Below are positions 18,708 to 57,731 of a stretch of 64,000 nucleotides of DNA, piece after piece; within the stretch, counting starts at the first letter, position 1, and each line of letters starts with the position of its first letter. Origin of the DNA: Escherichia coli (GTDB lineage Bacteria > Pseudomonadota > Gammaproteobacteria > Enterobacterales > Enterobacteriaceae). The DNA is taken from NCBI RefSeq assembly GCF_024700885.2, contig NZ_CP117016.1; one strand, given 5' to 3'. A program made the translations under genes and the position numbers. The notes under the pieces were generated by a model. That model did no database searches. It had not been told where the DNA came from and was given only the letters and a program-made list of their open reading frames with translations.

Positions 18708-20171
18708 ATGTTCAGGCAGTTGAAAAAAAACCTGGTTGCAACCCTCATTGCTGCCATGACCATTGGTCAGGTAGCCCCGGCGTTTGCCGATAGTGCAGAC
18801 ACCTTGCCGGATATGGGAACCTCCGCAGGAAGCACGCTTTCCATTGGTCAGGAAATGCAGATGGGCGACTATTATGTCCGCCAGCTACGCGGCAGCGCGC
18901 CGTTAATTAATGACCCGCTGTTAACGCAATATATTAATTCGCTGGGGATGCGTCTGGTTTCGCATGCCAATTCGGTTAAGACACCGTTTCATTTTTTTCT
19001 GATCAACAACGACGAAATTAACGCCTTTGCTTTCTTTGGCGGCAACGTGGTGCTGCACTCTGCCCTGTTCCGTTATTCCGATAACGAAAGTCAACTGGCT
19101 TCAGTTATGGCGCACGAAATCTCCCACGTCACCCAACGTCACCTGGCGCGAGCGATGGAAGATCAACAACGCAGCGCGCCGCTGACCTGGGTCGGCGCGT
19201 TAGGTTCTATTTTACTGGCGATGGCCAGTCCGCAGGCGGGGATGGCGGCGCTGACCGGTACACTGGCGGGAACGCGCCAGGGGATGATCAGTTTCACCCA
19301 GCAAAATGAACAGGAAGCGGACCGCATTGGTATTCAGGTGCTGCAACGCTCAGGATTCGATCCGCAGGCGATGCCGACCTTCCTCGAAAAATTGCTCGAT
19401 CAGGCGCGTTACTCCTCGCGTCCGCCGGAAATTTTATTGACTCACCCATTGCCGGAAAGTCGTCTGGCAGATGCCCGCAACCGTGCTAATCAGATGCGCC
19501 CGATGGTGGTGCAGTCGTCGGAAGATTTCTATCTGGCGAAAGCGCGCACACTGGGGATGTATAATTCCGGACGTAACCAGCTCACCAGTGATTTGCTGGA
19601 TGAATGGGCGAAAGGAAACGTTCGTCAGCAACGAGCGGCGCAATATGGTCGTGCTTTACAGGCGATGGAAGCCAATAAATACGACGAAGCGCGTAAAACG
19701 CTGCAACCGTTACTGGCGGCAGAACCTGGCAATGCATGGTATCTCGATCTGGCTACCGATATCGATCTTGGGCAAAACAAAGCCAATGACGCTATCAATC
19801 GCCTGAAAAATGCCCGCGATTTGCGCACCAATCCGGTGTTGCAGCTCAACCTGGCGAACGCTTATCTGCAAGGGGGGCAACCACAGGAAGCGGCCAATAT
19901 TCTGAATCGCTACACTTTTAACAATAAAGATGACAGCAACGGCTGGGATTTACTGGCACAGGCGGAAGCCGCACTAAATAACCGCGATCAGGAACTGGCT
20001 GCGCGAGCTGAAGGTTATGCGCTCGCCGGGCGACTCGATCAGGCCATTTCCTTGTTGAGTAGCGCCAGTTCGCAGGTGAAATTAGGCAGCCTGCAACAAG
20101 CGCGTTACGATGCGCGCATCGACCAGTTGCGCCAGCTGCAAGAACGCTTTAAGCCTTATACCAAGATGTAA
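18708..20171 (+). CDS. bepA: Periplasmic beta-barrel assembly-enhancing protease BepA (YfgC)
   Basis: Signal peptide, HEISH zinc-metalloprotease motif, TPR-like C-terminus. Confidence 0.9.
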
Positions 20172-56935: not shown

Positions 56936-57142
56936 TTACTGACCAAGCAGCGTTTTACCGCTGGTATTAGCGGTTGATGTGTCGCCCTGAGAACCGGTAA
57001 GCAGCGTAGAACTACGACCAGCAGCAGCGCGACGGCGACGAGTTTCTTCGTCGCGGGCATCAACAACGGCGGCATCCTGCTCCTGTGGTGCTGCCTGAAC
57101 TTCTGGTGTTGCAGGCACTGATGGTGAGCTACCCATGCACAT
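56936..57142 (-). CDS. Small hypothetical protein (68 aa) upstream of portal
   Basis: ORF ending at the portal RBS; Arg-rich centre; could be non-coding. Confidence 0.25.
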   Translation of the reverse strand: MCMGSSPSVPATPEVQAAPQEQDAAVVDARDEETRRRRAAAGRSSTLLTGSQGDTSTANTSGKTLLGQ

Positions 57143-57168
57143 ATCAATGACTCCGTACGCAATTAAAT

Positions 57169-57248
57169 TATTACCAATTTAACCACATATGATTTATTTA
57201 TCGTAGATAGTTGACATTTAACGCACAAATTATTACCTTTAAGGTAAC
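57169..57248 (+). promoter_or_regulatory. Conserved cassette copy B: TATTACC, AACCACATATG, perfect -35 TTGACA, 17-bp palindrome ATTACCTTTAAGGTAAC
   Basis: Same block order as copy A at 39946-40013; TTGACA at 57211-57216 with the palindrome where a -10 would lie. Confidence 0.5.
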
Positions 57249-57568
57249 TAAAGAGTTCATTCCGGTTACTAACCTGACTGGCTTGTCGTTAAATTGAACA
57301 GGTGGAGTGAGCTTTTATTTTGAGCAGTACGGCGTATGGCACATGCGCCGATAGCGGTCTGGATACGTTTAAGGGGCACCCTCCCTTGCTCGGGCAAACG
57401 AACCAGGTAGCCGGAATGTGCAAGTCGAGCGGTTTTATTCCGCGCACGGGGATTCACCATCCCGGCTATTCGGTGTGACGCCTCGGAATAGACGAGGGTA
57501 CAACGATGAGAGCATTTATGGAGCTGCGACAAAGTGTGGCGCATTAACAGGCTAAGTGCTCTCAGCGT

Positions 57569-57645
57569 TGTGGCATTAGCTCAGCTGGACAGAGCAACCG
57601 CCTTCTAAGCGGTTGGTCGCAGGTTCGAATCCTGCATGCCACGCC
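57569..57645 (+). tRNA. tRNA-Arg (anticodon UCU), phage-borne
   Basis: Cloverleaf by hand: acceptor GTGGCAT/ATGCCAC, D-arm GCTC/GAGC, anticodon loop CTTCTAA, T-arm GCAGG-TTCGAAT-CCTGC, encoded CCA; resembles E. coli argU. Confidence 0.85.
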
Positions 57646-57688
57646 AGAATCACGCCTAAGGACCGTGATGCCAGAAGTTCCAGGTGCT

Positions 57689-57731
57689 TGGCGGTGATGG
57701 TTTCCCTTGAAGGACTATCACCGCCCTTTTT
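57689..57731 (+). terminator. Rho-independent terminator after tRNA-Arg
   Basis: GGCGGTGAT-N18-ATCACCGCC followed by CTTTTTT. Confidence 0.6.

Follow-up and report, generated by a model that had tools for sequence, protein, structure and literature searches.

Repeated 17-bp palindromes of an epsilon15-like prophage in Escherichia coli MLI114 as probable operators of the repressor Rep

Dispersed repressor operators and the MLI114 prophage

In phage P1, with its repressor C1, and in mycobacteriophage L5, with gp71 and its "stoperators", one repressor acts on operators dispersed over the genome. The L5 stoperators are located inside operons in one orientation and block elongation. In phage lambda, the late genes are controlled by Q antitermination and not by CI operators placed before structural genes. 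The ant gene of Salmonella phage SPC32H, which encodes an antirepressor, is reportedly under LexA control. The Rep repressor of SPC32H binds palindromic sites as a tetramer in which the DNA-binding pairs come from different dimers, and it has a tetramerisation domain of the looping type (PMC9638917, PMC9986798). Rep is not cleaved; it is inactivated by Ant, which takes it apart (PMC9638917).

In phage epsilon15, sites of the form ATTACC-N5-GGTAAT are labelled "protein_bind: repressor, lysogeny" in the RefSeq record (NC_004775.2). These "repressor" features are located at 12-27 (terS), 2931-2947 (gp3), 19895-19911 (gp19/gp20) and 35906-35922; three further ones are found downstream of the repressor gene, and the places annotated include one after the replication gene. 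The features may themselves be predictions. A full-text literature search on an ATTACC/GGTAAT repressor operator returned nothing relevant.

We analysed a stretch of 64,000 nt of E. coli DNA, called the window here. Its right half is an epsilon15-like podovirus prophage (genus Uetakevirus), which E. coli MLI114 carries in its chromosome (NZ_CP117013.1) at the 3' end of guaA, and the prophage DNA is 97-98% identical to that of phages TL-2011b and phiV10. The late genes are on the minus strand of the window, in the order gp49-like regulator, terS, terL, a variable opposite-strand region, gp3, and portal through gp17-like. They are followed by ant on the opposite strand, and then by the tailspike gene and the lysis genes. 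The variable opposite-strand region contains tRNA-Arg(UCU) and a phiV10p03-like ORF. The gp3-like gene (56936-57142, minus strand; phrog_831) is the first of the head-morphogenesis block, and the tailspike gene (36819-39893, minus strand) is annotated as "tail fiber domain-containing protein".

The rep gene is located about 3.2 kb beyond the end of the window (NZ_CP117013.1, 1467239-1467823). It encodes an XRE-type helix-turn-helix protein, a homologue of SPC32H Rep (PDB 5d50_A, "Repressor", E = 4e-42). The ant gene (40089-40346, plus strand) encodes the antirepressor of Rep (PDB 5d50_E, "Anti-repressor protein", E = 3.3e-47). Like the Uetakevirus phages epsilon15, SPC32H/SPN1S and phiV10, the prophage has the same ATTACC-N5-GGTAAT site at syntenic positions, homologous Rep and Ant proteins (PDB 5D50) and a LexA box on ant. 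It is one more member of the phiV10 lineage, and nothing essential in it differs from the known phages with Rep operators.

As with C1 of P1 and gp71 of L5, one immunity repressor would serve roughly ten or more dispersed copies of its site, in many separate transcription units. The P1 and L5 sites are asymmetric, whereas those of the prophage are symmetric, located at promoters and often paired 62 bp or 17-18 bp apart. Lambda CI resembles Rep in being a helix-turn-helix repressor, in using 17-bp dyads and in forming higher-order oligomers that hold two operators, as in OL-OR looping. The two differ in their inactivation, in that CI is cleaved with the help of RecA while Rep is not cleaved and is dismantled by Ant (PMC9638917).

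The palindrome and its copies

The sequence-only reading of this DNA had described two loci, 39946-40013 (copy A) and 57169-57248 (copy B), with three shared blocks in one order, and this arrangement was confirmed. The TATTACC block is located at 39946-39952 in copy A and at 57169-57175 in copy B, and the AACCACATATG block at 39958-39968 and 57181-57191, respectively. The third block is the palindrome, ATTACCTTTCAGGTAAT at 39997-40013 in copy A, between ant on the plus strand and the tailspike gene on the minus strand, and ATTACCTTTAAGGTAAC at 57232-57248 in copy B, between the tRNA-Arg/moron region on the plus strand and gp3 on the minus strand. By sequence match, both are putative Rep operators.

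When the window was searched with the palindrome pattern of that earlier reading at up to 3 mismatches, 7 matches were found against 0.60 expected, and none of 100 shuffles reached 7. Position 1/17 of the MLI114 palindrome is degenerate (A/G...T/C), and the half-sites were generalised to RTTACC-N5-GGTAAY. With at most 1 mismatch, this pattern gave 4 matches in the 64-kb window against 0.12 expected, all of them in intergenic DNA of the prophage. The perfect ones were copy A, copy B and one terS copy.

The terS copy (60461-60477) is the first of a pair. It is located just upstream of terS, directly after the terminator that follows the gp49-like gene, and its epsilon15 ortholog is the feature at 12-27. 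The second operator of the pair, ATTACCACGGTGGTTAT (60443-60459, minus strand), has 1 mismatch and overlaps the terS ribosome-binding site and first ATG. In the RefSeq/PGAP and phiV10 annotations, terS begins with a TTG at 60522 (minus strand), and such a frame would have to cross both Rep operators and an intrinsic terminator (hairpin 60496-60513, T-run 60488-60495). A likelier start is the ATGATG at 60439-60444, which the records of TL-2011b, SPC32H and epsilon15 use. A perfect 12-bp palindrome of another kind, GTGACATGTCAC (60555-60566, minus strand), extends over the stop codon of the gp49-like gene. Of the six phages compared, five have it unaltered, and phiV10 has one substitution.

If the two loci share a phage repressor operator, as had been proposed from the window, the palindrome should recur in the immunity region and in related phages. 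It was found in the immunity region of the MLI114 prophage, just outside the window, and in all seven Uetakevirus genomes examined. The MLI114 prophage as a whole has 9 sites with at most 1 mismatch, plus weaker ones, all intergenic. Downstream of rep are two of them, spaced by 62 bp, which flank the leftward early promoter; the rep-cro intergenic region contains one, accompanied by a weaker second one; and two, again 62 bp apart, follow the replication genes. The remaining sites are the two adjacent ones before terS, copy B before gp3 and copy A between ant and the tailspike gene. For TL-2011b and phiV10 the counts are 12 and 10, respectively, where about 0.2 would be expected. In the seven genomes, which are phages of E. 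coli, Salmonella, Enterobacter and Klebsiella, there are 9-13 sites each and 76 in total, always between genes and syntenic. They comprise 56 distinct 17-mers with near-invariant half-sites and a free 5-bp spacer, as would be expected of sites to which a symmetric protein dimer binds on duplex DNA.

The 62-bp operator pairs bracket good sigma-70 promoters, TTGACA-17-AATCAT after rep and TTGATT-17-TTTAAT after the replication genes. In both cases the second operator starts near -8 and extends over the transcription start and the Shine-Dalgarno sequence. On these predicted promoters the placement is a repression geometry, and it suits a tetramer with two sites.

Both loci have annotated counterparts in epsilon15. 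The feature at 2931-2947 is the ortholog of copy B and lies 89 nt before gp3, which is the distance of operator B from gp3 in MLI114. The feature at 19895-19911 is the ortholog of copy A and is located between gp19 (ant) and gp20 (tailspike). Because these orthologs carry "repressor" labels and the prophage encodes homologues of Rep and Ant, the palindrome is best read as the operator of Rep. The occurrence in the immunity region, the seven phages and the epsilon15 annotation together support the earlier proposal that one repressor operator is common to both loci. We consider it very probable that RTTACC-N5-GGTAAY is the operator of the master repressor Rep of this prophage and heads its transcription units. 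The palindrome is thus real but ordinary, since orthologous sites were already annotated in the reference phage; judged by this comparison, it is a known part of the Rep-Ant switch of the epsilon15/SPC32H type.

The distribution of the sites varies at two places. TL-2011b has extra Rep-type operators inside an accessory-gene insertion (33332-33348, 34384-34400 and 34477-34493), near genes of the Bro-N and YafO types, and some acquired genes thus appear to have come under the same repressor. The MLI114 prophage is without the Rep operator of the lysis cassette, which is located about 100 nt upstream of that cassette in phiV10, SPC32H, Tyrion and epsilon15. When the window at 35455-35640 (minus strand) was compared with L004 (24691-24707), the region adjoining an acyltransferase gene was found to be replaced, and a second motif, described below as motif 2, alone remains there.

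Two promoter regions and a second motif

A perfect -35 hexamer had been noticed at copy B, and it proved to be a conserved element with its -10 within the operator. The predicted Rep-repressed promoter toward tRNA-Arg (57211-57239, plus strand) consists of TTGACA at 57211-57216, a 17-bp spacer and TACCTT at 57234-57239, the latter inside operator B. A survey of IMG/VR gave 115 contigs with copy B, which were reduced to 77 distinct sequences. In all 77, operator B is at the same distance from the gp3 core, with 0-2 mismatches. GTCAA, the complement of TTGAC, is found at a fixed 15 nt from the operator in 76 of the 77 while the 15 intervening bases vary, and the operator spacer ends in AA (plus-strand TT, which completes TACCTT) in 74. 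The plus-strand promoter is well supported by this conserved position of TTGACA-17-TACCTT. It was missed by a consensus promoter scan because its -10 matches at 3 of 6 positions only. Rep bound at operator B should block this predicted promoter directly.

The tRNA-Arg gene (57570-57646, plus strand, anticodon UCU) is located about 320 nt downstream of the predicted promoter, behind a leader. This leader, within 57246-57646 (plus strand), folds somewhat better than shuffles (z = -2.9), and the epsilon15 record predicts an RNase III site in the region corresponding to this leader. Terminator-like hairpins follow the tRNA gene at 57690-57725 and 57811-57826.

Copy A is organised differently on its plus strand. 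According to the sequence-only reading, each copy stood at the start of an opposite-strand cargo unit; this holds for copy B and fails for copy A, where the plus-strand gene is the antirepressor gene ant. This gene has a promoter of its own, predicted at 40027-40068 (plus strand), with a -35-like TGGATA at 40027-40032 and a LexA box, TACTGTATAAATATACAGT, at 40050-40068. The box is perfect and overlaps the likely -10 of ant. For copy A, 118 IMG/VR contigs gave 91 distinct sequences, and the LexA box, CTGT-N8-ACAG/T, was present in 89 of them. The operator was at the same column in 90 of the 91, with the intervening bases free. The order is constant: the start of ant, the LexA box, 36-37 nt, the operator, and 25 nt of free sequence and fixed length. 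The 25 nt are followed by CATATrTGGTT-N5-GGTAATAGAAT. The GGTAATAGAAT segment is invariant in the seven genomes; it formed part of the search anchor of the copy A survey in IMG/VR.

Operator A is located 103 nt upstream of the tailspike gene. It is centred at about -57 from the likely start of ant and at about -70 from the likely start of the tailspike transcript. As it overlaps neither core promoter, direct occlusion is not evident at copy A. A plus-strand TAGACA-17-GATATT that overlaps operator A was considered as a promoter; it occurs in the MLI114 prophage and is not conserved in Salmonella, Enterobacter and Klebsiella phages, and it was rejected as lineage-specific. No conserved plus-strand sigma-70 promoter over operator A was found across the relatives compared.

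The sequence-only reading had taken the first two blocks as part of a plus-strand cassette together with the palindrome. This assignment had to be abandoned, for in every genome examined they keep a fixed distance to the minus-strand gp3 or tailspike gene. Since the opposite-strand DNA varies while these distances are kept, both blocks belong to a promoter-like core of the late genes. The TATTACC block is a lone operator half-site. On the minus strand its GGTAAT abuts a -10-like TAGAAT (39942-39947) before the tailspike gene, the half-site being at 39947-39952, and TAATTT (57165-57170) before gp3, with the half-site at 57170-57175. The putative minus-strand promoters of gp3 and the tailspike gene showed no canonical -35, the best candidates being TCCATA/TTCATA-17-TAGAAT and ATCATA-17-TAATTT. 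The half-site and part of the second block form a 17-mer, ATTACC-N5-AACCAC, the centre of which is 50 bp from the centre of the palindrome at copy A and 62 bp at copy B, where the 17-mer is GTGGTTaaattGGTAAT. The 50-bp spacing is not a whole number of helical turns.

In the tailspike 5' UTR (39895-39935, minus strand), a G+C-rich hairpin separates the -10-like TAGAAT from the Shine-Dalgarno sequence. The hairpin is gcggcgcaacgggtgctgc in the MLI114 prophage and gcatgcgcgccgggcgcat in Salmonella phages; every lineage has it, in differing sequence, a pattern which suggests a conserved stem-loop at the 5' end of the mRNA.

The second block, AACCACATATG, was not significant when searched alone (3 matches with at most 1 mismatch in the window against 1.36 expected). 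It is one half of a second palindrome, here called motif 2, with the consensus (A/T)(A/T)CCA(T/A)AT(A/G)TGGTT, which is not annotated in the epsilon15 record. For the 12-14 bp palindrome CCAWATRTGGTT, 5 matches were found in the window against 1.23 expected, and 0 of 100 shuffles reached 5. With the looser pattern AACCA-N4-TGGTT the matches reached about 1.5 times the expected number, which was too noisy, and the tighter pattern alone was significant. On the minus strand of the window, motif 2 is ATCCATATGTGGTT at 39958-39971 (block 2 of copy A), AATCATATGTGGTT at 57181-57194 (block 2 of copy B) and AACCAAATATGGTT at 35525-35538; this last copy precedes the holin-like gene, the first of the lysis cassette, by about 70 nt. 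Copies are also located in L004 (24736-24749 and 33132-33145), and phiV10 and Tyrion have motif 2 in its perfect form, AACCATATATGGTT. Throughout the genus, motif 2 is located in or beside the core of the gp3, tailspike, lysis and post-cro promoters, and degenerate forms are found inside the spacers of both paired-operator promoters. Apart from P_R and terS, most Rep-controlled promoters of these phages have motif 2 within their core or next to it.

Motif 2 could possibly be the operator of a second regulator that acts beside Rep, such as the Cro-like gp39, a suggestion we make tentatively. If it were correct, every delayed-early and late promoter of the genus would be under two-key control.

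Candidate binders and the proposed switch

The same gp39, or the gp49-like zinc-finger protein acting as a late activator, might instead be the main binder of the 17-bp palindrome. gp39 is a helix-turn-helix protein (phrog_35, "transcriptional repressor") and is present in exactly the phages that have Rep. Lambda Cro shares the operators of CI; gp39 may likewise share those of Rep, and such sharing would add to the binding of Rep and not replace it. The NLVNRW stretch in the N-terminal domain of Rep is invariant across the genus, while overall Rep identity falls to 42%, and this invariance fits the unchanged half-site. As the motif does not change between phages, covariation does not separate Rep from gp39. 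The gp49-like protein is encoded just upstream of terS and belongs to a class of transcriptional regulators (phrog_536); it has no Pfam match and no solved relative. The palindromes precede late genes, where an activator would be expected, but they are also found within the rep-cro region, and the positions of the second sites of the pairs over the start or ribosome-binding site, and of the terS sites at the start codon, suggest repression and not activation. Pectobacterium phage ZF40 has a gp49-like protein that is 66% identical and yet contains neither the 17-bp palindrome nor motif 2, which speaks, if weakly, against this protein as the binder of either. With the sites assigned to the repressor in the epsilon15 record as well, we regard a main binder other than Rep as unlikely.

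It is still less probable that the shared blocks are junction or recombination scars of opposite-strand moron insertion with no regulatory role. Both copies do mark places where conserved late genes meet variable opposite-strand DNA, the sequence on the far side of operator B differs among E. coli, Salmonella, Klebsiella and Enterobacter phages, and the accessory-gene insertion of TL-2011b holds extra copies. The motif, however, flanks core promoters without morons, in the immunity region, before terS and after the replication genes, and a scar is therefore a poor explanation. These moron-free regions show precise -35/-10 geometry at the palindrome, and conserved half-sites around a free spacer are the signature of dimer binding.

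Very improbable, too, is a function of the inverted repeat as an RNA or DNA hairpin, be it a terminator, a processing site or a boxB-like antitermination site. The palindrome is able to form a stem of 6-7 bp with a loop of 3-5 nt, and copy A folds better than shuffles (z = -4.5), but the stems are weak (-3.6 to -5.9 kcal/mol) and without a T-tract, and shuffled sequences fold as well as copy B and the terS copy. Several copies are found just after terminators, and predicted RNase III sites are nearby in the epsilon15 record; an Rfam search gave no match at either palindrome site and found the tRNA alone. Against a hairpin, the half-site sequence is conserved at about ten non-homologous places while the loop is free, and the palindromes are found in either direction of transcription and also at the divergent promoters between rep and cro. 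Deviations are one-sided, so that pairing is broken (CTTACC...GGTAAT, ATCACC...GGTAAT, ...GGTAAA), which adds weak support, as the palindrome search accepted no more than 1 mismatch and their count is thereby biased. A host transcription factor with a similar palindrome, such as the antitoxin MqsA (site TAACCT-N3-AGGTTA), is equally improbable as the binder: the ACCT-N3-AGGT of copies A and B resembles the MqsA palindrome, but other copies such as ATTACCAAAACGGTAAC are without ACCT/AGGT, the conserved letters are TTACC/GGTAA, and the motif is confined to the prophage in the 64-kb window and conserved in Salmonella, Klebsiella and Enterobacter phages.

With Rep as the preferred binder, the simple dimeric regulator of the sequence-only reading gives way to a larger assembly, as Rep is described in the literature as a tetramer that engages two palindromes (PMC9638917). 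A tetramer offers two pairs of DNA-binding domains, and each Rep tetramer would therefore be able to hold two sites. Phage ZX5 encodes a Rep that is 100% identical to that of the MLI114 prophage. Overexpression of ZX5 Rep lowered holin and endolysin mRNA by 99.97-99.99% (PMC9782041), which could be an indirect effect of Rep.

In the lysogen, a Rep tetramer on the operators would silence the transcription of early, late and accessory units. Operator B lies over the -10 and the start of the predicted plus-strand promoter toward tRNA-Arg. At both copies, the operator is at a fixed 50 or 62 bp upstream of the promoter-like core facing the late genes, and the lone GGTAAT half-site at the -10-like hexamer could be occupied by a bridging Rep tetramer. 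After DNA damage, LexA would leave the ant promoter, and Ant would disassemble Rep and release all units together. For the MLI114 prophage, we infer the binding of Rep, the transcription starts, the bridging of half-sites and the SOS-triggered release by Ant, the latter from the LexA box seen upstream of ant and the mechanism described for SPC32H.

These findings are of limited importance. They show the MLI114 prophage to have retained what appears to be a complete SPC32H-type Rep/Ant/LexA switch. The gains are in annotation, namely the boundaries of the regulon, a likely correction of the terS start and the recognition of ant as a regulator and not as cargo. Beyond the immunity region, the repressor sites would also guard the units for structure, packaging and accessory functions, and tRNA-Arg(UCU) of the prophage is predicted to be silent in the lysogen.
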